64,000 bases of DNA from Phoronis australis (Eukaryota; Animalia; Phoronida): the NCBI GenBank assembly GCA_002633005.1, contig NMRA01000231.1, positions 252,082-316,081 on the forward strand. Reading direction: 5' to 3'. Of this stretch, positions 4,801 to 63,708 are shown piece after piece; within the stretch, counting starts at the first letter, position 1, and the number at the start of each line of letters is the position of its first letter. A model generated the notes under the pieces. It made no database searches and was not told the DNA's origin. It worked only from the letters and a program-made list of their open reading frames with translations. Position numbers and translations under genes: made by a program.

Positions 4801-7800
4801 GAATTGCACCCGTAGTCGCTCTTCAGTGCCTGTACATAGATTGCTTGAAATTTGTCATTGGTGCATCGCTTGAAAAAGTGATGTGGGGTTAGCTAATTTC
4901 CCACGAAAGCTGGTTTTTGTGAGTATTTGGAATTATTATAATTGCACAGCTTTAAGACATCATACAAATAAATGTGGGTGCATTGTCTCCGTACGGAGAA
5001 TCCGTTGGATCATCTGTGTGTTGTTATTTGTTCTGTTTTCAAGTGTCTAAATTATATCAGGGCTCTCCAGGACAACAAAACACTGAAGATGAATTCTGGG
5101 GAACAGAGTTTTGTCCAATTTTGAAGGCTGCTGACTGAATTTGTTATCATGATTAGCTTTTGGTGACTAGATGTGTTAGGCCAAACAAACCAATTAGCTT
5201 GTTATGGCGTATGACACCGACTCATGTTAATGCGCTTACTATTAAACCAAATAAAAAATTGTCCAGTAGCATCAATATCAGCCAAAGTCTCATATTTTTT
5301 GAAAAGTTGCACAAAAGCATGCAATAACAACACCGCACCTCTAACCCAATTTTCAAAAAGAAAAAACAGACCATAAGCAACTGATATGCTTTCTTGGCCT
5401 TATCATCATCATCATCATCATCATCATCATCTCCTTAACTTGTCTCACATTAACCTTTGCTTTGGTTGTTGTGTATAACTACATGTATTCTTTACATTAA
5501 CCGTACTGTCATTGCAGTAATAGCTGTCAGTGATGTACAGATGCAGCAACACTATGACGACTTCTTTGAGGAAGTTTTCGTGGAACTTGAGAGCAAGGTC
5601 AGACAGCTGGGGACTGTTTCATGGAAGTGACTTGTTATGAGGGTGTAGAAATTTATGGTTCCACTTCACAATTGCTGAAAAGGCTTTAGCTAAAGAAATC
5701 ATGTGTACATCACTGCATGTCTAGATATAAATTGTGGAAAATATACCAGTAATTAGCTGTTAATGTGTGCATTTTCTCAGAGATCTAATTAGCAGTTTTG
5801 TGAGATTTAATTAGTGCCGAAATGGTTGTGTGGAGTGTAAGACCAAATTTCTGATGTAAGTCTTTTTAAGTCACATGTCATGAAACGGACACTGGTATTG
5901 ATTAAAAACCATATTCACTCACGTCAATGCCCAGGTTATTCAAAGTGCATGAAAAACGCATTAGAAGTCGTGGGCATGGGAGTTGAAAACAAATATTTTT
6001 TAATCAGTGTGGGTGAATGTTTTCCAAACAATGTTTGAAGCTGGCCTAATGGTTGAAAATTCAGTTATAACCAAACTAGAGGTGACATACATGAATTTGT
6101 TTGAAATTCAAGGATGATCATTTACCACAGCCAATACAATTACTAATTTAAAATGAACAGTTTTGTTTCTGAATTGACATAACAATGTTGCTTTTTTGTT
6201 TTTTGAAGTCGTTTCTTTAATTTTAGACACGGTAGGTTTACATTTCTGGGTTTTCATACTCATGCACCTATTTGTCGCCAATAGAATAAAGAAACACGGA
6301 CTTTTGCAATAATCTCATGCCAAGAATTGTACGCTTTGCCTCTTGGATTACCTCAAAATCCAATTGCTACCTGGTGGTTTGGTAACTGGTCCAGTTATGT
6401 TGCACACCCATCAGAATCAATGTGTGACATATTGCAACATTAAACAAATTACCGTTTTAGGTTGTAAAACTCATTTCTTGTCTATAATTTTCAAAATTCA
6501 AAAACCTAATCACATTTGCTTTTCACGAAGTGTTCAAATACGTTAGTCACAAACTTTCAACCCAAAAATTTAGAAATATTATTGTCGCCTCCAATGTGTT
6601 GATGATGGTTACATTATCTAGAGAAAAAACATCAGCAGCCTGTCAGAGGCGATTTAATAAACCACAATGTCATGGTGTCTTTGATCTAAACTAGCAAATT
6701 CTGAGGTGTGCAAACCGGTCGAGTCGTTTGACCGGTCAGGGTGTCAACGTACGCATGTTTTTATGTTCTTAACATTTTACATAATTATTGACCGTACATT
6801 TTAATTTTAGTATGGTGATATTGAAGAGATGAATGTGTGTGACAACCTTGGAGACCACCTGGTGGGCAGTGTCTATGTCAAGGTCAGTACTGTGTTGCTC
6901 AAGTTGCATTTTTTGACAGTCTCTGTGATTGTAAGGTAGAAATACAATATATTATGACAAATATGAATATATAAAGAGCTAAGGAAGCTATTAAATATTT
7001 TAAGAATAAGATTTAATTAATGATCTACCAATTGTCACCGAACGTGTCCAGTTAGTAACAGGATGGGTTGCATGGGTTGCAGGAATTATTGATCCATGAA
7101 GTGCTGGGAGGATGTGTGCCTCTGAGGAGTCATTATTGTGAAACTCATTCATTTGGATTTTTTTTTATCAAATTATCTGTGAATACAGTTGCTGGTTGGT
7201 TATGGAATGCTATTTGAAGTAACACTGTTTAATACAATTCACCTTTAAGCTTTTTAGGACTTTGTCATTTTCTATTCTCTTTATATGAACACGAATTGAC
7301 TGAGGTCCTTCTATAGAATCACCTGCATGTTGATTCTAGTCGTGTGTTGTGTTATCTGTCAACCTCAGAACTATAAGTGGTGGAGTCTCCCTGAGTCAAC
7401 ACAAAACGCCGATGTTTCGATGATCTCTGGATTTGCACTCTACCTTCCAGCAAAAGTTTGATTCTTGAGATCTCTACAATGCCTACAGTGTTGCTTCTCA
7501 GCTGATGTTAAAATGATATATAGTAACTCGTGTCAAGTTGGAGTCTACGCAGCTGCGAGATCGCACTCGTTTCAAATGCCAACTGAAGACTTGAACAATG
7601 GCTGGCACTGCCACGTAACTTTGTCGGTGTTGAGTGAAGAACTGACTTATTAATAAGCGTGGTGTAGTGTATTTTTAGACTTGACAATTTGAACTCATCT
7701 TTGTCTTTCAATGTTTAGTTCCGTTATGAAGAAGATGCTGAAAAGGCTGTCAATGACCTGAATAATCGATGGTTCAATGGTCGCCCAATAACTGCGGAAC

Positions 7801-8204
7801 TTTCTCCGGTCACTGATTTCCGAGAAGCCTGCTGCCGGCAGTATGAAATGGGGTACGTGATCTGTAGCCTTTATGGCCTCACTGTTGATTTCCCAAGTTT
7901 GGATGCTTCTCCAAATTATCATTCAGGTAGCCATAATTTATTAAAATGAAACAAAAACCACCAAATGGTGGCACTGCATGAAGCTTTAACCATGCTTTGA
8001 CGAATATTTTGTTTCCACAGAGAGTGCACAAGAGGTGGTTTCTGCAACTTTATGCATCTCAAGCCAATATCGCGAGAACTTCGCCGCGAATTGTATGGAC
8101 GTAGCAAGCGAAACCGGCGACGGTCTCATTCTCGCTCTCCAGCCCGCAAGAGGTCAAGGTCTAGGAGCCGTGAGCGAAGACGAGACCGTTCTGGCAGGTT
8201 TTAA
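1850..8204 (+). CDS. U2AF1: Splicing factor U2AF 35 kDa subunit (5'-partial; exon 1 upstream of window)
   Basis: Phase-consistent GT-AG exons: 1850-1937 ([29 protein letters not shown], ZnF1), 3391-3457 ([22 protein letters not shown]), 5518-5597 ([25 protein letters not shown]), 6811-6882 ([24 protein letters not shown]), 7719-7852 ([45 protein letters not shown]), 8021-8204 ([29 protein letters not shown] tail ending DRSGRF*). AATAAA at ~8376. Confidence 0.97.
2097..2221 (+). repeat. 14-bp minisatellite (GGAAGTGGGCGACR), ~9 copies
   Basis: Directly visible tandem units in U2AF1 intron 2. Confidence 0.9.
4095..4650. mobile_element. Degenerate palindromic MITE-like element
   Basis: AAATTCTTGATCATGCTG...CCCGTTAAACGAGAT (~4104-4145) is inversely matched by ATCTTGTTTAAATAAGGG...AGCATGATTCAGGAATTT (~4600-4645). 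Boundaries approximate. Confidence 0.5.
5176..5402. mobile_element. Short MITE with GGCCAA termini
   Basis: TTA-GGCCAA at the left end and TTGGCC-TTA at the right end. Confidence 0.4.
5401..5430 (+). repeat. (CAT)n microsatellite, ~10 units
   Basis: Directly visible. Confidence 0.9.
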
Positions 8205-9197: not shown

Positions 9198-10820
9198 CTT
9201 TCTTCCAGTCGTGAGGAGGAACGATTCAGTGTCATTTTGTGTAATACTTTCAGTTTGTACTGTAGCTAAACGGTGAAGTTCAGATGACATGTGACAAAGC
9301 GTTCAGTTTTCTATCGTTCAGAAGCCAATCGCTGCAAATGCCTGAAATTTTCCAGACTTATTGGATATTAATTACATTAGGTATGATGATACTCGGCAGT
9401 AAAAAGTTTAGAAAAGTCATCTTTGTTGAGAAGTTCAATGAAACTTCACTTTTTTGCCATACTGTGTCCAAAAGTGAAGAAATTGTACAGTTTTTTTTTC
9501 GACAGCGTTTAGATGGGCAATGCCCTTCTAAACCGAAGATCAACGCAAGGGCTCATATCAGTACTAGTAACCGAAAGGGCTGACTCTCAACAGTTATGAG
9601 CAGTTACTAAGTACTAAAATCTAAGATAAAAATGGCTGCCCAAAAAGACGAATATAGACAATGCAAATCACTTGATAAACTTTTAAATATTATTTGTACC
9701 ATCAAGAAATCTGTCAGACTCTGCCAAGCTTAAGATTGTTTTGATATTACTTTTAAGTCATAGTCACATGACAATTGCACATATCTGGCTGAAAACCCAG
9801 ATTTGTTGATAAGGTTTAACATAACCTTTAAAAAAATACCAAATATATAAAAGTTCCCCAACTTAATGGAAACATTTCAACATGAAAATTGCTAGGAAGA
9901 CTGGGCTCTTTACAACATTGCCTGTTCTGATGTGACATGATTTTAGGCTGTGTAACTGCAAAGAGTGACCATTTGCAGTTAAACGGCCTAAAATCATGAA
10001 GGGAACTATTTCCAAACCCCGCACCGTGGGTTATGCTTTCTCATCCAGCTCTTCAAAACAAAGTTAATAATGATTTATTGAAACATACACACATGGGCAT
10101 AGGCCCAATGTATATCATGTACACGACAGAATATTGTCAGGTGCCACGTTAAAGGTTTCTAGTAACAAAGAAAAACAAAGCTTAATATTTCAAATATTTA
10201 AAGACAATAACATCAATTTACATCATATGCTGCAACAACCATAAAGTCCTGACAAATAACTCAAAGAGCTTTCTCTGACAATCAAGACTACAATTATACT
10301 TAGCTTCAAAAGCTACCGGTCAAGATTTACACATTGAGGTACTCCTGTTCACAGGAAAAGAGTAATTCAAAGAAAATTTGACAGATTTTTTCTAAAACTG
10401 AGCTTTTTACTTTTCTTTACAATGGTAAACTAATGTAACAGGTTTGCAGAGAGGGCGAGACTTCAAATGTCACTTGAAATTGCAAAAAATAGCACGTCTG
10501 ATTAATGGAGATGGACTCCTTAACATAAATGGGTGTACATAAAAGTAGTACGCTACTGTAACCCTACATAAAGCTGATGCAGCTATATAATAATGCAAGC
10601 AAAATAAGTCAAAACAAGTGAATTTGCTCTCTGAGAAAGTTTATCACAAACCTTATATTCAAATAGGAACTACTTGTGTAAGGGAGAGGAACAATATGTA
10701 TTATATTGAGACAGTGTACTTGTGAACATGATTTCAGACTGCATTGTCACCCAACCTTGACTACATACTTCTATACTCTATGTCCCGGCTACCTCAACAA
10801 GTAATTAGAGTTTTTTAAAT

Positions 10821-11192
10821 CCCGTCCACACACAGCCTGCCCTAGAACAACTTACACTTAGTGCAACGTACCCCACTTTTAAGTGGAACATCCACACACA
10901 CATATTTTATAACTAGGGTAAGGCAGAAGTTGTCGCTCTGTGAAAACTAATGCTAAAACAGCGTGCAAGAAAAAAACGCCTCTACATAACCGTAGCTGAA
11001 ACTTACTTCTGCCTTACCCCAATTTTGTGGCCACACAGCGATTACAAATGGCGGAAGTTAGCCTACAAGTTACCCCACCTCGATAAAGTTGTCACAAGTG
11101 GGGGAAGTTATGCTAAGTATAAATAGCGTCCAGACAGCAGTCAAACCAAGCGACAACTCGTTCCATTGTAAGTCTGTGTGTGTGGACGGCAC
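10821..11192. mobile_element. Palindromic MITE, termini resembling PIF/Harbinger-derived elements
   Basis: CCGTCCACACACA at left / TGTGTGTGGACGG at right; internal inverted pair GGGTAAGGCAGAAGT / ACTTCTGCCTTACCC. Superfamily is inferred. Confidence 0.65.
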
Positions 11193-11709
11193 TTTGTGAC
11201 TAACGAAACGACTTAACACAACATTCAAAAATAGTTTGTGCCACATTCATATGGTACAGAGATTGGACAGTCTCACAATTAAAAGAGCTATAAACCTACC
11301 TCCTATCATAAAAACTTCTCATCTAGGCTATGAAAAAGGTCTCAAGTTCTTCAGTTGAAATAGACTTGATTTCTGGCCTTGGAAAGAGCTGGCCCTCGTT
11401 GACTGTCAGTGGCAAGTCTTTACAAGCCGACTTGTCACAGTGTGCATAGTGTCCAGCAATAACAAACTGTCAATTATTTATAAGACCAAAAATCATTCCT
11501 CGTTTGAGTAAGGAACAATTCAAGACCAATTTATAGCAGTAGAAGTGGTCTAAATCAAGTCAGTTTCTTTGACGGAATGCGGGTAATTGCTACTTTATAT
11601 GTTCTCCAGCTTTTAAAATTCCTCAATACAGATAACCGTCGTCATGACGCATGCATAAACAACGCAGAACATAGCATGCCCATTAGAGCACCGTTGCACC
11701 ACTCCTTGT

Positions 11710-11780
11710 TTATGCCCTGGTTTCAGCTTCGACATCAGGATCCAATTCTCCATTTTTCAAGTTTGCTGGTATGGCTCGCT
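11710..11780 (-). CDS. ETHE1: Putative alternative terminal exon of ETHE1 (ERAIPANLKNGELDPDVEAETRA*)
   Basis: Minus strand has a CTTAAT branch-point-like motif and TTTTTTACAG acceptor. It is phase 1, matching the exon 6 donor at 15284. Translation aligns with the canonical last exon (AIPANLKNG vs AVPANMKCG). Minus-strand AATAAA at 10074-10079. Confidence 0.75.
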
Positions 11781-11881
11781 CTGTAAAAAAGTGCATAAGA
11801 CATTAAGCCTAACATTTGAACAACAAAATTTTGTCTTCATACAACTGTTATTAGAACACTGCATTTTACATTTTTGTTTAT

Positions 11882-12209
11882 TTAAAGCTGCATTTTGTTG
11901 TTTAGCTGGCTAAAACAGAAATAGAAATAGGCCTTTAACTGCCATAGCTTTCCCTACCCAAATGGGATTCTATTGGTACGTTCCCTATACAGACAATGCA
12001 TGAATGAGTCATTTTCGAAATCACAATTTTAGGGTTGGCCAGCCCCAATAAACTCTGAAGTGTTTTCTTGAATCATAAATGGCTTTGATGTTCTTGTTGG
12101 TAACAGAAATAGAAACATTCCAAGATAATATTATGAGCAATTTACTATGTAAAAGGACTAATTGGATTTTCGTTTTTAGGCAGCTGAGCAGGACAAAATG
12201 CAGCTATAG
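11882..12209. mobile_element. MITE with TIRs, TTAA-like flank (Kolobok-like)
   Basis: TTAA-AGCTGCATTTTG at left / CAAAATGCAGCT-ATAG at right. Confidence 0.55.
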
Positions 12210-13845
12210 TGCACAAAGCCACATACAGTGCCATCTTTTGGTATACAAGTCATTTTAGAGGCTCAGTTAACAGTGAGTTAGTGTTTCAGATTTCGACTTC
12301 GGATCCAATAGAGTGTAGCATCTGCCTCTTCACTTGACCTAGATCTGTCATTGCAAACTTGATCAGGACGTTGGTTTCATTCTGTCAACATTGCATTTAT
12401 GACTGAATTTACTGTATGTTACGTCAATAATATCAAGAATAACGCAAACAGTGCAAAGTGCAACTACTGTGGTTAGAGACAAGTGGCTTGGTGCTTCACC
12501 GTCTACTAAAAGAAATGTCAAACAGTTAGGCGATGAGAAAGTGCCCATAGAACAATAACAGGAGATTAACTTGGAGTCTCTTTCTGTAGAGTCCTGGGGC
12601 GCTTTGTGAAGAATGACTTTAGACAGAAAGTTAGTCTTCCACTCCCACTTCACACAATTGCTGAAAAAAGATTTTGTCAAATAATTGACCATGTACGTCG
12701 AGAAATTCAGTGTAGCTTTGTGCAAACTAAGTGAAGGACAAAGTATTATTTTTGTGCGAAATGTGGTGAGAGGTGTGGGTTTATAGGTCCTTTAAAGAGC
12801 GGTGACGTTCAGTGAAAAGTAAGCAACTGTGGTCAAGACATTGTTACAAAACACATAACGCTCAGACGTTTAACACAACAGAAAGAAAAGACAGCCACGA
12901 GGCACTTTTACAGAAAAGACAACTAAGGAAGTGCACAAGAAAAGAAACAAGTGAAGGTCAAAACCATGATTTTCTCACAGGACTATGACAAGACTACTAT
13001 AGGTAAACTATGGAAATTTCAACAGCAAGTTGAAGGACACATACATGTACATTACTATGAGCATGTACATTAAGATCACACTCATCCATGTGTTCATATT
13101 TTTGGATTAAAATGAAATAGTGACGTCAGTGATAGTGATCATACAACTGCAGAAAAGGAGTACAGGAATTTTTGTGACCACACCATTGGAGGTGACAGGT
13201 ACAAGTCAAACGGTGATGGATAGAGTTGCAGGAATTCTAAGTAATTGTCAAGCGGCCATGGTTTCATAGTCTTTTCGCAGTGTATTCTTTGATAGTCTGT
13301 TAGTCTCATCTAAGCGCAATAGACTTATGTGGGGGCCAACTGTGTAGGAGAGATTGAGAGGTCCCAATGAAAACAAGTATGTCACAATGTTTATAAATGA
13401 AACATGATATTTAAGTTTCGACATATTTTGACGTAATCACAACATCTTATTGAATGCATCCATGGCCAGCAAGAGACAGCAGGAGGGGCTCACAGCAAAT
13501 TGTTGAGGATGTTATTCCTCATTCAACATCAGCATTTCATGGAAGTAAAAATGTTCAATATAACCGATTATAACCAAATTAATAAACAGTTTTTGTCCGC
13601 TCGTAATTGCAAACAGTATATACATGCGTGGTGTGATTGTAGTTTTATGCACATGCAAAGGACACAAAATAAGCCAAAGCCATCGGTGCAGCCACATGGA
13701 GACAGGCATCTAATAAAAAGTAACAGAATATCCAACAACAGTCTTGGATCTGAGCACTTAACAAAACACGAGCAACACTACACTATGAGGCCAAACAGCA
13801 ACACGGCACATGGTTGGGTTTTCCCCGGATGACCTACACAATAGT

Positions 13846-16800
13846 TTATGGTTTGGGTTTTTCCCCGGTGTCACCTGGCTCATACAAACCACACTTCATG
13901 TTGGCGGGCACAGCTACATCTGAAGACAAGATAATAAGGAAGGTGTGGTGTAATACAGTAGAACAGTTAATGATGTAGAATAAAGAGGCCAAAAAATGGG
14001 CAGGTATGAATGGTGTAAAACTAATCACAGTCCGTAGTTCTAAACAGTTGGCAATTTTTCAAGCTGTATTAAAAATACAACAGAAAACAAACAAGAAAAA
14101 AAGTAATGTATAAGCATAAAAAATAGCCAAAAAGTCTTGTTCTGAAATTTCACCCATTACTGCACAGATGAGGGTACCTCGACTTGTTTTTGAAAATTAC
14201 AGAGAATGGCAGGAGCAGATTCATCCAGAACGTCAGTAAATATGGCAAAGTGTCTTTCAATTAGAACACAATATGAAGGTGGAACTGTGAAATTTCAATA
14301 ACTAAAAATTTTCAACAAGAGTACACAAGAACACAATTGACTGTTCTAAGATTTCCCATAGTACGCAATACAGTGAGCATTTGAAAAATCAAAAATGACA
14401 GTTTTGGCCGTTATTTTTGTTTGAATTTAAGGAAACTTTACCATGATCCAAGAGAAGAATGCAGGTGAATTCAACAGTATATATTAAGTTATCAACTTGA
14501 AGTATACATCCAACTCTCAAAACAGCGTGCTAGTTCCATGATGTCACACAAAACAGGAACAACTTTCTCCTTTTTCATTGGGCAAACTTAAGTACATAAG
14601 TGTAATTTGCTTTTTGATCACAGCCAAATATCATTTGAAGAATCAAATCATCATAACAGAAACCTGGGCATGGAAGTAAGAGTATAGACTGGCTATTAAT
14701 GAAAAAGCAATAACTGAGTAAGCCTGTATTCATAACAGCACTTGGGGGTTGGGAAATGCTTAATTAAGCGCAAAAAAGGAAAACTAAATCAAACTGTTTG
14801 AAACAGCTTCATTACATGTGCCATGTGGGTTGAAATCCCCTTATGTCCACAACATGTCAGATTCATCACAACTTTTTGAAAAACTTACGTTGAAAGTTGG
14901 CACAAATGTTATCTCCATAATATACTTAAACTTTCTTGTATGTTTACAACTGAAGAAGTTACCGTGAATAGTGAAACTAGAGATGAGAATACTAAACAAA
15001 ACAGGAATAAAAGATGTCCATTCAGCTTCATGACAAAATGTATTCTGAACTAATAATCAAGGTTGCCAACAGGTGGCGGTATCATACAACAATATTGCCA
15101 AAAGGTGGCAGCATCAATCAGACTCAATTTAAACTAAATTAGATTCTGAGCTTAAAAACACTAAGTTTCAACATTGTAAAATGACGTTTCATACTAACTA
15201 CATTCAGTACATTTGGATGCTGTCACCAATTTTATCTACGAGTCTGGAACCTACTACTGACTGTTCTAATCTTACACACTTACCGATTTGTTTAGGATAT
15301 GGCAGGTTGAGGTTATCCATAATCTTTACAAACTCATCCAGTGGCTTGGTCAGTCTTCCGTTGAACTGTTTTTCTTCAGCAACAGTCGACATTGACTGAC
15401 CTGAAATTACACCAAAGGTGTACTTCACTTGAATGTACTATAAACTTATGTTCATTTAGTTGCTAAAAATCATAATCCATGCCACAAAACCCATCCTAAA
15501 AAGAAAAAAGCTTAAGAGTTTCGACAGTCAGAGTGGTGGAGGTAGAACATGGCAGTGGTTACCAAGCAAATGTGATAATAAAAAATATCTAATGCACCAA
15601 AGGTAAAACGTGCATCGCAAACTCGTTTCCAAAAATGAAAAGGATACTGAGATTCAGTTGGTGAAATAATGTCATTGACAAAATAGAAGTACGAAGAACA
15701 AGAATGAAAATAAAAATATAAAATAATTAGGTAATCTGAGAAAAAAGATGTTCAACAAAAACTGCCACAAGAGATGTTGCATGTAAGCCTTTTTTTACCG
15801 CATGATGGCTAAAAACCATTCAACATCTGGTCATTACAACAATAGAGTGTAAAACTGCTTACCTGTGTAGTCATGGGCAGGGAAAATAAGTGTGTCATCA
15901 GGAAGTGAAAATATTTCGCGGTGCACCGACTCATAAAGAGTCTTAGGGTTACCTGTGAGTACAAAAAGACAAGAAAGAATATTAGTAAGGCAACGATGGA
16001 AACATTTTTGCAAAACCACAATAATAGCAAGAAAGGTGTCCATGTTGTTTTTACGAAAAACAAGCATATGACGTCATTACGTGGAATTACGATTGGAACA
16101 TCTTAGAAACACTTCCTACCAGCATTATGGAACAGCGCATGATGCACTGAACAGTATCTAAAAGCCTCATCAGAATCTCATCAGACAGATATGGTGTTCT
16201 CAAGTTGGGCACATTATAATTTTGTACATTTTTCTAAGATCCTGAACCTTAACAATGGCGGATAATGAGCCGATAAGTAAGCCTTGAGTCAAGGTTCAAA
16301 TTTTAGATTCACAAGACAGGTGACGACTGAATTTGTTTAAATGTAAAGAGATAACAATAACAGGTGCTTAGTTCTGCCACGTCTGACATGTTGCGAGTAC
16401 TTGCAAGAGCACCAGAGTTTAGTTGTTAAAATATCACGATACTGACAGTTAATTGTTCCCGACCTTGCTGGAAATCTGTCCGACCACATCCCCTGATCAA
16501 GAGTGCATCGCCTGTGAATATCATGCCATCTTCTCGCATCAAAAATGACAAGCAACCTGCAATCACATGGATTATTATAATTAGAAAGATGTTCAACCTG
16601 TAAAGCAAAAGATAGCAGGTAGAAGTAATTTTAAAGTATCTTATGTAATTGAAAGTTACAAGCTTACCGAGAAAACAAAATTGTTTTTCAATTGATTTAG
16701 ATTCCAGATGCGTATTTCTCCTCCCAGGCTTAATTCCTCTCCTTTTTAACAAAAATTGACTTTATAAATTTTGCTACGAAGTAAGGTCATAACAAGTTTA

Positions 16801-19800
16801 AACAACAACCTTATTTCACAAGTCGATCACACGTACCATCTGTGTGTCCAGGCGTCGGCCTGGCTTCTATCTTTTTATTCCCAAACTCGATGACGTCACC
16901 TGGCTCCAAAAGAATATCAGCCATGGCTGCAGAAGCTTTAGCGATGACACTCTTGCATGTTGGAACATCCTTCTTCAATTGGCCACTGCTGGTCACATGA
17001 TCAGCATGGCAGTGTGTATTTACTGCAAATAAACATTTCATTTAAAGCCGCTACATGTTCAACTTCTGTCAAAGACATGACCTCTTACTGCAATAAAAAC
17101 TGGTCCCAACTTGATCCTTACTCAGAGGAGAAATAATTTCTGTGCTTGAGACCATGATTGGCCCTTTAAGTGACCCATTAGGGCATTCTCCCTGTTCAGT
17201 GACTTTACTAGACACAGAGCTGTTAATTGTGAGTGTGTGATAACCTCTAGCTCCTTTATTAACTGCTAAGCAGTCTTTTATCTGGTACAGGACAACATGC
17301 AGGTCAATTATTTACCAACTTGAAGGCTTATTACCCAGGACATGTGAACACAGTCAAACCCAGTGCGTTGTTACGTTCGTTCGAACAGAAAAGATGGGCT
17401 TAACTTTGGTTGAAGATGGGCGATTTTGGTGATTCAAAAACTAAGCATGATGCAGTATCAGTATTTGATGAGGAATTCAGATGTTATTGGTTTATGTTAA
17501 AATATTTTATAACTTAAGTTTTATTTTTTAACATTACAACCCAGTCAGGCTACATAATTATGATCTCACAGGAGATTACAGCAATTATCGAACAAAAGAG
17601 AGCTGACCCTCCAACCATAAATACTAGAATGGACTTAATCAGTAGTCAACATATTGCCTACAGTGGTCATCAGCCCAACTTCTTGTTGTGCTTATACAAC
17701 CAAACAAGTTGGACTCAAGAGGAGAACATTGTAATGCAGTCACAGGCACTTTAAGAGCCTGGTCTCAAACAGTGGTGAACAACCAATTTTTCCAAAGCCA
17801 TAAACCCATCTGGCTAATGAATGATATAAACTAAAAGTGATCTTTGACGGAGGACAGGTTAATAATTAGCAGGTTTAACTGATTCACAGTCAAGTTAAGA
17901 ACTGCACTTCCCAGTGCAAAATGAATTTTGAGGATATATCTACAGCAAAAAAGGGGGATCATTAAAAACGTTAATCTGCTAAATGTTGTTAAAGTGTTGT
18001 AACAGTTATTTCCATGAAATTTAGAATTTAAAGTAAAAAAAAAGGAACGTACCCAACTCACCAATTGCCCCGTTAGGCAGTGACGGGGATAACTTGCCGA
18101 AAGGCACGTATACAAGTGAATAAAGTTCTAATCAATCACCTAGTATGTTTTCAAGCTTAAATTCTTTCAACACAGCTGAGTTATTGACATGTTTGCTTAG
18201 GCACTACGTAATGAGAATTACCTTTTGATTATGTAAGATACGTAAATGATATTTCATGTTCAATTTTGTTCAAAGCAGGTGGTGAATATGCAATGTTCAT
18301 GCAGACCTTATTAACACTGTTAAAGAGACGTGTATTACTAGAATGAATGACTAGGCTTTGCAGTGATGGTGGACATGAAAAAAATGCAACTTTTTGAAAA
18401 CGTGATATTTACTACATCTTTCAGATGGACAGATGAAAATGCAAACTTCCGAAAATGCAAACTTCCGAAAATGCTGATAGACATGTAGCCATAATATAAT
18501 ATAGCATATTAGTGCAGACGAAGAAAGCTTTGAAAAAGAACAAATAATTGTCGCATCTTCGGTTGTATTGACGTAATCATGTGGATGGAAAAATTTTGAA
18601 CACGTATGCTTCAAAAACAGAGAGTGAATTGCTTTTAGAAAACGCAAAAAATGTGATTTCAACATGAAAACAGTGTCGTGTGTGGACAGGTCCTTAACAT
18701 ATGAATGATAGCAAACTGTGGGCCACAAAAGCCAGGTTACAGCCGACAGTCATGAGTTTGTGATAAGAGTAGGCAATGAAGTCGGCACAGCACATGAGGT
18801 CTACTGCCAGTTTGCTAAAAATTACCAGACCAGTCAGTTATCTTTGTTACCGGTCACTGACTTGTTTCTGACCAGCCCTACAGAAATTTGTGACCTTTGA
18901 TAATGTCCAGTTTGATTATTTCTGTAGATAAGCAAAATAATGATGAGTTACCACTCCATTACCACCTATAGTGAAACGCGCAACTTCAATACTTGCAACA
19001 GTCAACTTTGTAACCTAATTCGGGTTGTTTTAGCTTTTCCATTCAAAACTGGCAATGACCTTGTTTTTGAGGTTTAACAGTGGGAAAATCGACTTTGTTT
19101 TGACGAGGATTTTGTTTACTTGACTTGAACTACAGCTTTACACACTTTTCGATATTTAACGTTTAAGGCTACTTTGTTACAGCCAAGCGACATGAATCCT
19201 GCGGTGGAGGGGGAAAATTTAGCTCCCTCTTTTGTTCATACCATTTTTATGGCAAAGAGTTCAGTTCTCATGTGATTCTGTTGATATATATGGTTAAGCC
19301 CAGGGTCAAATCAAAGGTCAGAGGTCAAAACTGGATAGCATCCTTGTGGCTAATAACTTTTTCTATAGCTCAACTTTTATTTTCCACAATGATTAGTTGG
19401 TAATATAGGATTACAGTGTGAAACGTACAAAATTCTAGCGAACTGCGACTCACGAGTTTCTTTGCTTGTATCGGGACACAGTAATGAATAGAAGACAACT
19501 GTAAGCGCTCATCAGTTGACCATTTACTGGAATCGCCAGCATAGTTGACAGAAAGGCCTCGACCAGTTCTCTACGGGCATTCCATCTCATTACAACCATG
19601 TGTCTACAGGATTTCTGCACAAATGGGGCAATGACTTATGAAAAACTGAGTGTTACCTGGAGATGGTTATAGAGAGCAACTAACCTTTAGGTTATGGGCT
19701 GAGTGCCTTGTTCAGCCCATTGCTGCTGCCTCTCATGTTTCTACGCGTACCACCTGTCCACCAAAATTTCCAACCCTGCCATTAACCTAATTGAACAATA

Positions 19801-22575
19801 ATTTGGATACATACCCTATGAAAATGTTAAATAGTTTCATTGAAAAACAAAACATTCTCTTGTCGCTTTTATCGGTACTTTAGTAATTCTTTACTTACGC
19901 GCATAAATAAGTTTAAGACCGAGCTGTTCAGCGACTCGTTTGTCTCGTTCCACCGTTTCCAGCACTGGGTCTATCAAGATGGCATCCTTAGTCTCAGGAT
20001 CACCAAGTAGGTATGTGTAGGTGAATGACTTGTGCTCAAATAGCTGCAACAGGAAACAAGTAGAAATGTAATGGAATGTTTTTCTGCAGTTTGCACAAAA
20101 CACCCAAAAAGGAGTCATTGTTTTATGACACTGACTATAGTTCATGAAACATTTCATATTTTTATTTCAAACAGCAAACTTTTTAAATTTGAAACGTTGA
20201 TTTGGCATTGAATTAATTGGTATGCGCATTGAGAGACGTCAAATTTGCCGGATAGGCAAACACAAGTCGGTGCAGATCTTAGATGTTCTGAATTCGTGGC
20301 CAAAAGGAATTTATTTAAGAAACAACTTCTTGTCTAGTATTTACTCAAGTCAACTATACTTCCTTCTGAATCCCAACAAAATAAAGTGAAATGCAACAAG
20401 CCAATTTTGATCTTGAAACAAGCATGCTTTTGAAAAGTCCAATTCCACATTTTTATGAGATGGTATTAGAGCTATAATACTACATAGCTAAAAAACTTGG
20501 TGCTCCCTAATTTTTTTCTCACGTACGATATGAAACATGACAGGGGCTTCAAAATAAAAGAATAAAGAAACTGATTAATGATCTAACTGTTTATGTACAA
20601 ATGAAATGCTGTCCAGATAACGATGGATTAGAATATAAAATAGTAAAAATACCCTTGACAAAGAGCACATCGCTTGAAACGGGGAGAATATTTTAGTACC
20701 GATGCTCGTCGTTTCATTTTTACTCAGTATTTTATATATTTATTTTGAACAGATTAAGTGTAATATTGCATTGGAAACACAGAGGGTAAGGTATTGTGTT
20801 ATCTGTTTGTGATCAGGGATGAGTGAACTGTAATTTGTCACAATTGAGAATGTGTAAGTCATGATAACACTGGTAGAATGTCAAAAGTTAAAAAGAAACT
20901 GACGCCGTGCAACAGAAGTCTGTTTTCAAAATGCTTTATATAACTAATTCAAAATATCTGAGGCAGTTTAATTTTCAACAGTCTAGCCCTCAGGTGCCTG
21001 TTTAGAACGCTTCTAACAGAAAACAAATATTTCCTTATTCAGTGACCACCCACTTGGAAAGAATTCCGCTAGTTCATTATTTTTCAAATGCAGCTCATAA
21101 AGTTTCAGGTCACTACAGCCCCACACCTAGCTGAAATTCAATTGATCAGACGAAAAATAACCAATCTCATGCAAGCTCAGGGGCCAGACTAATCGAAACT
21201 TATATTCAGTACATACATGTCAACCAATATGGTATAACGTATTCGTTACATATTTTCTCCCGCGTAGTGCCAATATGCTACGTATTTTAGGTAACTGATA
21301 CGCATTTTCGCCAATATTCCCAATGAATTAAGTTTTCAAACCTTCACGTTGGCCTTACTGGCAATCTCTTTTTGTCAAAATAATCTCATACCACGAGCCT
21401 TGGTTGATAGCTAGGAACATAAGAGCTATCAGTTACCAAAGGATAATAACAACACTCAGTTACTAGAATGTAAGAGCCTCTAATATAGTAGGTATATACA
21501 CGCAATGTATTTTTTACACTTGACCTTATTTTGAATTGTTTCCATCAGTGCTATGGTTTGCTTTGTTTTTTTTACATAAAACTACTATGGTTAGAGCAAA
21601 AATGGTTGACAAGTATGAAAGTCATGAACAACTTGAAAATGATATAAATCAGAAAGCACGGGTTCAATTTTAAAGCGGTAAAAGTCTTTCGTCACGAAAA
21701 TCGCTATGGATAATTTAGACCATGCACTTGTCATTTCATGACATTTATCTCAAATTGTTGCTCAGACAAATTGGATGTGATTTGCAGGTTTTGAAAGAAC
21801 TGATATATAGCTTTTATATGAAATCAGGGTCCTAAATATGGATTGTCATAGCTAGGGTGTCATACTTAAGTGTAAAATAAGTCTGATTTTGAGAAAGGTA
21901 CTTTCAGTTCTTAGAAAACACCCATGACAGAAATCACTTGTCATCTAAATGAGCTGCAACTAAATTTATAGTGCTAAGTGATGGTGTAAATCAAAAGTTT
22001 GCTTCTTGGACAGAATAAGGTGTAATTACAGTGGCTTTATTTTCCCTTACAAAAATGTTTGGTGGTGCCCCCGAAGGTTGGACAATTTTAACTGCCTTCA
22101 CTTATAGTTGCCTCAAGCCATGTTCAATCTTCTCATGCATCTTTGTCATTATGCACGCACGAGTGTTGATCAGATGTTTATTGTCCTATCTGAATGTTTA
22201 TTCCACGTGCTTATTCCAAATATTACTCATGGAACGCCAAGTAACACATACGCGATCTTGATATCATGGCCACATCAAGGTCAATAAATCGCAACCTATT
22301 TCCGAGTAGGCTATGTCGTATAAAAAATAAGGTTAGAAATCCACGACAATCAGACCGTGCAGACACGACTGTCACGTCCGCCAGATTGTTGTGTGGGGGC
22401 TCTGGGGCCGTAGTCTATTAGTATTAGATTAGCAAATCTTGTTATCGCTCACCTGTCTGAAAATTAAGGGATTTTTACTCCCATTAATGTATCTTCTGTA
22501 CATGGCAGATGGACCAGTTGCAAAACGTCTGAAAGCAGTCCTGAGCAGTTCACTAGACTTAGTTCTCAATGCCAT
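13846..22575 (-). CDS. ETHE1: Mitochondrial persulfide dioxygenase ETHE1 (metallo-beta-lactamase fold), isoform using the Cys-containing terminal exon
   Basis: Exons (minus): 22575-22453 (Arg-rich presequence MALRTKSS...IFRQ), 20043-19899 ([13 protein letters not shown]...[11 protein letters not shown]), 17022-16837 (NTHCHADH...TPGHTDG), 16556-16464 ([19 protein letters not shown]), 15952-15863 (IFPAHDYTG), 15400-15284 (STVAEEK...LNLPYPKQI), 13919-13846 ([24 protein letters not shown]). All junctions GT-AG and in phase. Confidence 0.96.
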
Positions 22576-40900: not shown

Positions 40901-43900
40901 CTTCATGACTTTCATGGAAGAATGAGGAAGTCACATTGTTTCCTGAATTGTGTGAAAGTTGAAGGTTTTGGATCACAAGTTTGCATCACTCTGTTAGTTA
41001 CTTAGATACCATATTCGATCTTTTTATAGCAACTTAAGTGTGAAAGATTTTTTATAAGTATGATTTGTAATCTAGAGCATGCCTTGTCAGCAACGTGTTC
41101 AATTCGTTAACAAGACTAGACAAGTTTTGCCTATGCAAAAAAGATTTGAAGAGAGCAGATCCAGATCATTGCTTGGTTTACAGACAGGAAGGCTATCTTT
41201 CGAGCAACATAGTATTTTATTGTGTGGTATTCTTGTTTTTCAAAATGGATGTAATGACCGACATTTTACAGAATGAGTGACCTTACCTACAAATTTATTT
41301 CTTTTGCATTTTTAGCGCAAGAAGTGTCCTTGATCAGATATTATTAAAAGAGGTAAGATTAAGTTAAAATCTACAGTTTTTTGCATATCTGGCTCATCAC
41401 TCAGCCTAGTCATTGAGGTCCTACATAACCTTGACAGTCTTGGTGTTCTGCCGGTGTATGGTCAATGCACAATTGGTGACCTGCAGCTCATCAAAGCAAA
41501 CTCAGATTTTGTTTGGCGACCTAATAAAAATTCCTAGTTGCCACGAAGCTGCCGCATTCTTGCTAGTTGCATCCAAATCAGAAGAAGTGGTGACCTTCAT
41601 AGATCTGGTCACATGCTCAAACTTTTTCAAAAAGAAAATAGACAGGATTTGGAGTTGTTCAGCAAAAACAGCAGGAACCACAAAAAATGACGCCAAGGCA
41701 ATTTTGGGTGTCGCAGCAGGCATTTTTCATCATTTCAATTTGTTTGCCTCTCTGTTTGTCTTCTCCACCTTTCATATGTATTCTATTTTGTTTCCTGCTA
41801 GATTAACTCAGGTTCCACCAGATTTAAGAAGCTTGAGAATAACTTCTTCAAAGCAGCCGGTCGGGATGTCACCTCACAGGTACACAATTGTCAGTCAGTG
41901 ATTGTCTTGTTTTTCAGTTCCTGACTACAAACATTAAAAATTCACTCATTTTGATTTTCCTCTGTGTTGGCCTGCCAATGAGACAACCTGAATAATTATT
42001 TAGCTTAGACAAAATTACTGTCGCCTAAGTTATGTTTTTTCTTGTAAAATTTTACAATTTCCATTTTTTTCAACTCCTTCACATTTTACTGCCATCGATA
42101 AGATTTCAGAAATCTTGCAGTCAATGACTGATTAATATAGAAGTTGTTGTCTCTAAACTGTGAGTTTTGACAAGGAATCTCTTTTATTCAGTTTTAGTGT
42201 TTGCAAGTGTTCAATTGTTTCCATGTTTGTCATGAGATTTTATTTTCTTTTTAGCCCAAGCCTTTGCCGGAAACCCCCTCTGCCACAGTTAGGCCACCCG
42301 CAAGTAGTCAGCCATCTGTGTCTGCAAGACACCAGTCTTCTTCCTTGAGTACCACTCAACCTACTCATACTCGACTTCCAACTTCTGTTCAGAAACCTAT
42401 CACTGTCAGCCAGCATTTAGCTGCCGCTGCCAAACAGCAGCAACAGCAACTGCAACAGCAGCAATTACAACAGCAGCAACAGCAGCAGCAGCAGTTACAG
42501 CAACAACAAAAATTACAGCAACAGCAGTTGCAACAACAGCAGCAACAGCTGCAACAGCAGCAGCAACAACAGTTACATCAGCAATTGCAGCAACAACAAT
42601 TGCAGCAGCAGCAGCAGCAACAACAGTTACAGCAACAACAATTGCAGCAACAACAATTACAGCAACAGCTGCAGCAGCAGCAACTAAAAACTAAGCAGCA
42701 AGTTGACCTCCGACCTCGCGGGATCAACCAAAGGCCTGGCGTGCAGCAGAGTATTCCTGGTGCACAGCTAGTAGGAGGAACTGTTCACTTCAGTGTGTCT
42801 GATGCTGCACTTCAGCAGCAGAAGCAGTTGGCCATGCTGCAGCAGCAAATTGCTGGGGCACCTCAGCGGATGTCCAATGTGCGTCAGGTTATACCCATGT
42901 CAGGTGTGACTCAGATGCAAGGTGCCGTGCCAGCGCGAGCCCCTGTCAGTGCCCCTCTTCAACAGGGAAAGAGTGGGCATCCTGTCCGTGGTGTAGTCCC
43001 TTCTCTTCCCCAACAGCAAGTTACATTATCCACTTCTGCTCATCACCAGATTAGAGAAAGTGGCCCAGTTGCTCAACAAGCTTCATTGACATCAACACAG
43101 GTATTGGCCACGCCCTCTCAGGCCAGTCATGTTAAAGCTCCTCCCCCTTACCCTTCGTCTGACAGTCAACAGGAAGCCATGTCATCCAATCAGCCATCTG
43201 TGTCAGCATCCATACCCGTTGGCCAATCAGTAGCCAAGTCTGGTACTAACAACTCCACCTATAGACAGAAGTACAGGAGGCTGAAGAAGGTTGTCAAGTA
43301 CATGTTGTTTGTAAGTTAAAGGATGTGTTAAAGGTCCTGCCAAGGTCTCAATTAAGATGCTTCTGAATTCAAGGTGACTGCAATGCCAAGTTGTAAGATT
43401 GTTAAAGGTGAACACCATAAATCGATAGAACTTCAGTGTTACCGCCTTTTGTAGTTCTCGGTCTTATATTCAGCTTTACAAACAACTTTGTTCAGTAATT
43501 TATCCTTGTACACAACTGCTGGTGACCTTAGCACGTTGCATGAAGTCTTTGAGGAATGACAAGTTTATTGTGATTCACTACACATCTTCTTTTTGTTCCA
43601 CTCAACAGTTGAATTAGTGGCTGATTGATATGATGTTGGACAATGATTGCTGGTATCATAATGAAACAATTGATAATTTGCTGAGATTGTTTTTGTTTGT
43701 AGGTACTTTTTCTTTCTATAAAAGTAGTAGTCTGTTTAGTTCAAACAATTTTCCCTTTCACTCTAGGCTTTGGATGGTATTTATTCTCTAGTTTGCGTGC
43801 TTAAGTTAAAAAACGGAACTAAGCCACATGATACTCAAGTCAATTTCAGCTGACTATAGAGATTATATCTCATTCTGTAAAAGATATTTGCCATGTCCAA

Positions 43901-63468: not shown

Positions 63469-63708
63469 TTATAAAACGCAGTGGACGAGACACAACACGA
63501 TGCTGACAACGGTCATCGATGCGTGAGCAAACATTGTGATCCCGCCGTTGTCTCCAACGCAATGACGACAAGTGAGCACGTGACTGGGATCCCATTTCTT
63601 TTTCAGTGTCAGCAATTTGTCGTAGTTGTCTCCCCAGTAGTATTTTTTCCAATCAGATTTCCTGGCATCTGGTTCATTAATATACCCACTCGACACGTGC
63701 TTGTAGAG
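63469..63708 (-). CDS. Last exon of FAD-linked oxidoreductase with berberine bridge enzyme (BBE)-type C-terminal motif; gene continues beyond window
   Basis: Acceptor TTTTCATTTTAG, then LYKHVSSGYINEPD...WKKYYWGDNYDKLLTLKKKWDPSHVLTCRHCVG, matching the Y-x-N...YWG-x-NY-x-xL-xx-xK-x-KWDP BBE motif. A hydrophobic tail precedes the stop. Confidence 0.85.
   Translation of the reverse strand, partial: LYKHVSSGYINEPDARKSDWKKYYWGDNYDKLLTLKKKWDPSHVLTCRHCVGDNGGITMFAHASMTVVSIVLCLVHCVL

Follow-up and report, generated by a model that had tools for sequence, protein, structure and literature searches.

The window, by which we mean the whole 64,000-nucleotide (nt) stretch analysed here (contig NMRA01000231.1 of Phoronis australis, positions 252,082 to 316,081), carries on its minus strand a gene for the sulfide-oxidising enzyme ETHE1. 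Six coding exons, running from 22575 to 15284, are common to both of its isoforms; the internal junctions are all AG/GT, and every one of them is supported by RNA joints (Table 1). The Cys exon that follows them is a stop-containing cassette upstream of one common last exon, and the beginning of that last exon is coding in one mRNA and untranslated in the other. The two proteins, of 275 amino acids with the cassette included and 274 with the cassette skipped, are identical except for their last 23-24 residues: the inclusion isoform has the conserved C-terminal cysteine (human Cys247), which is absent from the skip isoform, where asparagine occupies the site.

The window protein is a metallo-beta-lactamase (MBL) fold sequence closest to ETHE1 in protein searches, in which all named matches are ETHE1. 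Its closest animal homologues share 65-68% identity over the ETHE1 core, with 68% over the core as the top value, these searches turned up no close relative, and two trees do not place it beyond an open group of animal sequences. Taken alone, exon 3 matches Pfam Lactamase_B with an E-value of 3e-4, under the curated cut-off as a fragment; exon 6 has its best match in residues 184-221 of the human 4CHL chain (E 5e-8), and the Cys tail aligns to residues 227-239 of 2GCU, a match that is weak by itself (E 0.41). The Arg-rich N-terminus encoded by exon 1 is likely a mitochondrial targeting peptide. Motifs for the His-His-Asp iron ligands of Type I persulfide dioxygenases, and for second-shell His, Asp and Tyr, are present in the constitutive exons, the residue identities being those of PMC4383860. 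Judged by sequence and ligands, the gene is a Type I persulfide dioxygenase, of predicted activity.

Table 1. Features of the ETHE1 locus, in order of transcription (positions are those of the window)
Feature	Positions	Strand	Evidence
Exon 1 (coding, from ATG)	22453..22575	-	Joint 20043-22453 in 4/4 runs; GT donor
Exon 2	19899..20043	-	RNA joints; AG/GT
Exon 3, THCHADH and PGHT motifs (2/3 iron ligands)	16837..17022	-	RNA joints; Pfam Lactamase_B
Exon 4, FTGDAL (third iron ligand)	16464..16556	-	RNA joints
Exon 5, HDY motif	15863..15952	-	RNA joints
Exon 6, last constitutive coding exon, phase-1 donor used by both isoforms	15284..15400	-	RNA joints
Cassette exon, 82 nt, Cys tail PANMKCG, stop TAA at 13848-13846	13838..13919	-	Joints 13919-15284 and 11780-13838 in 4/4 runs
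UG-rich intron stretch past cassette, TGCATG at 13657, candidate splicing enhancer	13588..13837	-	Motif counts
5' part of last exon: Asn tail PANLKNG if cassette skipped, otherwise 3' untranslated region (UTR)	11710..11780	-	Joint 11780-15284; 27.3 bits
Common 3' UTR, AATAAA at 10079, end approximate	10060..11709	-	Stranded depth in X2-X4

Our RNA evidence comes from four runs that share one species label and bear no label of tissue, stage or condition: X1 consists of assembled contigs and X2-X4 of stranded raw reads (18-19% of each run). X1, which belongs to a separate study from X2-X4, is only presumed to be RNA, and it is spliced at every ETHE1 intron. A first-pass annotation of this DNA, made from the letters, had proposed two terminal exons, one Cys-bearing and one Cys-less, both joined to the phase-1 donor at 15284, and had named the junctions 15284-13919 and 15284-11780 as the ones to look for in RNA. 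Donor, AG acceptors and both quoted translations are as it gave them, and RNA uses both junctions, so transcripts do use the 11780 acceptor. The exons are not two terminal ones, however, since in each of the four runs the Cys exon, which has its own donor, is joined on to the 11780 exon. This joint (13838-11780) has 17, 10 and 23 reads in X2, X3 and X4 (sum 50) and a depth of 60.8 in X1; the joint 15284-13919 has 10, 7 and 12 reads in X2, X3 and X4, including reads shifted by an allele at the junction, and the skip joint 15284-11780 has 2, 1 and 0 reads, with a depth of 226.8 in X1. Both inclusion junctions and the skip junction are thus seen, as defines a cassette exon.

Other architectures were considered and rejected. 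Alternative last exons do not agree with the joining of the Cys exon to the 11780 exon in every run, nor with the lack of a poly(A) hexamer after the Cys exon: neither AATAAA nor ATTAAA occurs between 13846 and 11883, and depth just beyond 13838 is that of intron background. The exons are not strictly mutually exclusive either, as the inclusion mRNA holds both and exclusivity is limited to their coding use. Junction-dependent decay follows a 50-55 nt rule, and in neither form does a stop precede a junction by more than 8 nt, which speaks against a decay-targeted isoform. Stranded depth in X2-X4 runs into the bin 9957-10413 and is 0 in 9500-9956, and both mRNAs end in one 3' UTR that reaches near the AATAAA at 10079. 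One X1 contig spans 9500-10942 at depth 591, X2-X4 having no depth below 9957; either the ETHE1 UTR would extend further in X1, or 3' ends would overlap there. Intronic repeats at about 12010-12114, 14290-14410 and 17450-17643 attract many partly matching reads on both strands.

That the two tail exons are homologous, as had been claimed, is confirmed by a profile of 154 distinct homologue tails from which the Cys column and the split codon were excluded. When the AG sites of both strands (n = 7,436) were scored with it, 13919 reached 31.5 bits and 11780 27.3 bits, far above every other site (the third-ranked has 2.4 bits, and the best of 20 shuffled controls 13.1 bits), so chance homology was rejected. 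The two exons are identical at 19 of their first 35 nt, their flanks have no similarity (best E 0.52), and five of the six residues that are identical between the tails differ in the third codon base, which makes both copies look old and selected. Profile scores and third-base divergence therefore speak for the earlier suggestion that an exon was duplicated long ago and both copies retained by selection, and we would say that the duplication looks old and that both frames look to be under selection. Read variants in the coding part of the Asn exon comprise one synonymous change and one Thr/Ala change near the end, against seven variants in the neighbouring 70 nt of UTR (among the rows listed), which are too few for a selection test.

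The idea that splicing chooses between a Cys and a Cys-less ETHE1 is borne out by the presence of both mRNAs, in a ratio that differs between samples. Cassette inclusion is about 21% in X1, where the skipped form makes up about 79% of transcripts, and 91% in X2-X4 (29 inclusion reads among 32 at the two junctions from 15284; interval 77-97%). A Fisher test of X1 against X2-X4 gives 6e-15, a value that is indicative only, word depth having been counted as reads, and the contrast of 21% with 91% is one between two studies, in samples without a type label. In X1 the inclusion and skip depths add up to 287.6 (60.8 + 226.8), compared with 285.4 over the upstream exons, which argues against a separate source of the skip junction. 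One may also consider that the tails are functionally redundant and that the shift in ratio reflects a difference of population, species or library rather than regulation. Such redundancy would suit the origin of X1 in another study, its difference of about 5% from the window in the UTR, and the fact that the layout is not seen in other animals examined. However, X4 has the last-exon alleles of X1 (10/12 reads at 11680-11690 and 24/24 at 11721; X2 and X3 match the window letters at 11680-11690), and despite this it shows 0 skip reads, with 12 and 23 reads at the two inclusion joints. Since X4 has the alleles of X1 without its ratio, the last-exon haplotype does not explain the shift, and the shared alleles indicate that the runs draw on one gene pool. 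Moreover, synonymous divergence together with kept residues implies long retention of both copies, and we consider redundancy very improbable. The UTR region as a whole (9500-11780) is allele-rich: X1 differs from the window there by indels as well as by other letters, and X1 alleles segregate in X4.

A search with a query lacking the tail returned 120 matches, 93 with Cys at the Cys247 site, nine with Asp and 18 without a scorable tail; a further search, directed at tails without Cys, brought in 81 new proteins, among them 29 with Asp and one with Asn. Named Asp carriers are Necator, Dendronephthya and Nannochloropsis, and a Scenedesmus protein has tandem domains, an Asp domain first and then a Cys domain. 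(The Asp-class rows are proteins P0267, P0275, P0026, P0060/P0253-P0272 and P0002 and loci L010, L011, L018, L019, L024, L026 and L029.) In all 53 Asp/Asn rows among 234, many of them near-copies, the three iron ligands are intact, as are His, Tyr and Arg of the second shell. Lys replaces Gly in the IRGCGR motif in 30 of 52 Asp rows. The residue after the tail Gly is Leu, Ile or Val in 252 of 261 Cys-class rows; the skip tail has Glu there, and so do most Asp-class rows. A model of an Asp-class protein lies on human 4CHL at 1.7 Å over 231 columns, with a predicted local distance difference test score (pLDDT) of 86 at residues 281-290; it speaks to fold, not activity, and is of another protein than the window isoform. 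In 47 further loci, mostly bacterial-looking, there were 44 Cys, one Ser and two unmatched tails. Judging from these rows, ETHE1s with Asp at the Cys247 site and an intact active site form a class that recurs among eukaryotes, in contrast to PMC6060420, where Cys is called strictly conserved in Type I enzymes. In a tree built from 38 rows of the enzyme body, seven changes of the Cys/Asp label are needed (bootstrap 7-8), and the window protein falls outside a large Asp clade that groups near Urechis. Seven genomic loci of this clade share the ETHE1 tail intron, with the Asp exon as the sole tail exon found. The skip tail itself scores 50 against Asp-class tails, 46 against the best Cys-class tails and 37 against its own Cys exon, which fits convergence or shared origin alike.

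Asp is a close mimic of Cys-sulfinate and Asn a neutral isostere of Asp, and Asn-Gly readily deamidates. In the human crystal Cys247 is a sulfinic acid, and the Arabidopsis cysteine is doubly oxidised (PMC4383860); the authors left undecided whether this is a functional state or damage, and the role of the oxidation is still called unclear in PMC12926118. The latter also states that Cys247 lies near the iron, as the first-pass annotation had it, whereas PMC6060420 puts the homologous Acidithiobacillus cysteines a considerable distance away. PMC12934615 and PMC11507549 contain nothing on the site.

We give about even chances to the prediction that the skip isoform, with Asn for Cys247, is an active ETHE1 that is not oxidisable or persulfidatable at that site. 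The existence of natural Asp/Asn ETHE1s with intact iron ligands argues against a dead skip isoform; thus, of the fates first suggested for it (inactive, redox-insensitive or neofunctional), the inactive one is the least supported, as all Asp/Asn rows keep the ligands, and a reading of the redox-insensitive kind is favoured. Several points weigh the other way. Human C247S abolishes activity and lowers polysulfidation (review PMC12926118; primary source Jung 2016), and Acidithiobacillus C224A retains 1.3% activity (PMC6060420). Since Ser and Ala mimic neither sulfinate nor Asp, the loss seen in these mutants is no proof of inactivity in Asp or Asn forms. Asn at the site is uncharged, and it was found in only one other protein (P0271). 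Well-supported branches of the 38-row tree force only two Cys/Asp changes. The Nannochloropsis Asp gene sits beside a Cys paralogue (P0083), and Cys paralogues of Asp-class genes may do the catalysis; an assay of any Asp/Asn-class enzyme was not found in the literature searched. The skip majority comes from one run of assembled contigs (X1). Past the Cys site, too, the isoforms have different residues, and these rather than Cys/Asn could be behind an effect. Finally, no second gene with both tail exons was found in nine genomic loci with a tail exon or in 21 multi-member protein clusters, close relatives not being among them.

Regarding this layout, 19 of the best 37 of 80 metagenome loci have the same intron; nine of these show one tail exon (seven Asp, two Cys) and ten show none within the contig. 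Among contiguous loci of the Cys type, 11 had their own tail matched by the pattern, and none of these has a second tail downstream; none of the 21 multi-member clusters (30 looked up) mixes Cys and Asp tails, the closest Cys/Asp pair being 76% identical. Matches from a 50%-cluster search, for the most part short fragments, do not enter these counts. These negatives are weak, because none of the loci or clusters is from a close relative.

The loss of activity in C247S and C224A would also suit a skip form that folds with little or no activity, and that serves as an off-state or as a damper in mixed dimers, letting persulfides and H2S accumulate in some tissue or stage. A damper is compatible with the mainly dimeric state of human ETHE1 (PMC4383860), and an off-state with an Asn that lacks the charge of sulfinate or Asp and with the finding that inactive human ETHE1 mutants still promote cell migration (PMC10572406). 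One would, on the other hand, hardly expect it from a form that dominates the X1 transcripts, the active site is complete in natural Asp/Asn proteins, and a conserved 12-residue tail is not needed for a simple off switch; we therefore think this reading rather unlikely. Mutants of C. elegans ethe-1 are H2S-hypersensitive (PMC12646581), which we do not use as evidence on the Asp class. Alternatively, both forms may be about equally active and the remainder of the tail may matter, through stability, partner binding or oligomer state, Cys/Asn being incidental. The tails do diverge fully past the common core, and the residue after Gly sets the Cys class apart from the Asp class and the skip tail. 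Yet the site is nearly always Cys, Asp or Asn in homologues, implying a chemical constraint there, and no peroxisomal signal can be recognised at the end of either tail, so that this explanation appears improbable to us.

The locus may have arisen as follows. The last exon would have been duplicated long ago, and the upstream copy would have gained a donor just past its stop, whereupon both forms would use one 3' UTR; with its stop 8 nt before the last junction, the cassette form would escape junction-dependent decay. Asp in other eukaryotes might be a genetically fixed stand-in for the Cys-sulfinate of the human and Arabidopsis crystals, and Asn its neutral isostere, in which case splicing would decide whether the sulfide-oxidising enzyme is made in a redox-modifiable or in a fixed version. 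It is a more doubtful proposition, put forward tentatively, that Cys247-sulfinate is the working state, repeatedly hard-wired as Asp, and that splicing toggles between a matured, redox-regulated Cys enzyme and a thiol-free one (in which Asn-Gly may deamidate to Asp-Gly), so that mitochondrial sulfide oxidation would be switched in response to sulfide or oxygen.

Inclusion might be set by a tissue- or stage-specific factor acting through a weak donor and a UG/GCAUG-rich downstream intron. The cassette donor, TGT/GTAGGT, 8 nt past the cassette stop, is non-consensus when judged against the usual donor. TGT[GT] occurs 13 times in the 250 nt after the cassette, against a mean of 3.4, and 1 of 510 tiles reaches 13, that tile being a poly-Q repeat; counts of QKI, MBNL and NOVA motifs are unremarkable. 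Together with the TGCATG, the UG-rich stretch suggests CELF/RBFOX-type control, which we grade as a suggestion only because six motifs were tried in the enrichment.

Elsewhere in the window, an exon with an RNA recognition motif (Pfam RRM_1; 7719-7853, plus strand), convergent to ETHE1, is one that we take to resemble U2AF35. A 354-codon open frame at 42255-43316 (plus strand) has a long irregular poly-Gln tract and ends in a basic helix-like segment, and an exon at 63472-63708 (minus strand) encodes a berberine-bridge-enzyme domain (PF08031, E 1.7e-12).

The gene offers a natural protein pair that differs only in the tail with the Cys247 site, and the question of whether oxidation of this residue is catalytic, regulatory or damage, which bears on ethylmalonic encephalopathy and on invertebrate sulfide tolerance, could be approached with it and with the Asp class in simple assays. 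For annotation, a coding tail hidden in the 3' UTR of another isoform is easily missed. Neither an ETHE1 tail switch nor the Asp class was found described in the literature searched, most subscription journals and supplements being outside its scope. Like human (4CHL) and Arabidopsis (2GCU) ETHE1, the window gene has the MBL fold family, the iron-ligand motifs and a C-terminal PAN-x-x-C-G, and unlike them it adds an Asn-bearing tail through splicing; among the annotated ETHE1 isoforms of other animals that we checked, the differences are N-terminal or internal and in no case affect the Cys247 site. The Asp-class ETHE1s of Necator, Dendronephthya, Nannochloropsis and the clade near Urechis resemble the skip isoform in lacking the Cys, in their intact active site and often in a Glu after the Gly, but they are separate genes or domains with Asp, whereas in the window a single gene yields both a Cys and an Asn form. 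The closest parallel in kind is coq-2a/coq-2e of nematodes, flatworms, molluscs and annelids (PMC7434440), where homologous exons are swapped and key residues of an enzyme serving mitochondrial metabolism are changed; coq-2 ratios shift with conditions, and the ETHE1 ratio differs between samples. In coq-2, however, the exons are internal, mutually exclusive and of equal length, with a proven substrate change (PMC7434440), while the second ETHE1 tail lies concealed in the 3' UTR behind a cassette with its own stop, and the functional change is predicted. Switching between duplicated exons is thus already known, as in coq-2, and the ETHE1 case is a variant of that kind.

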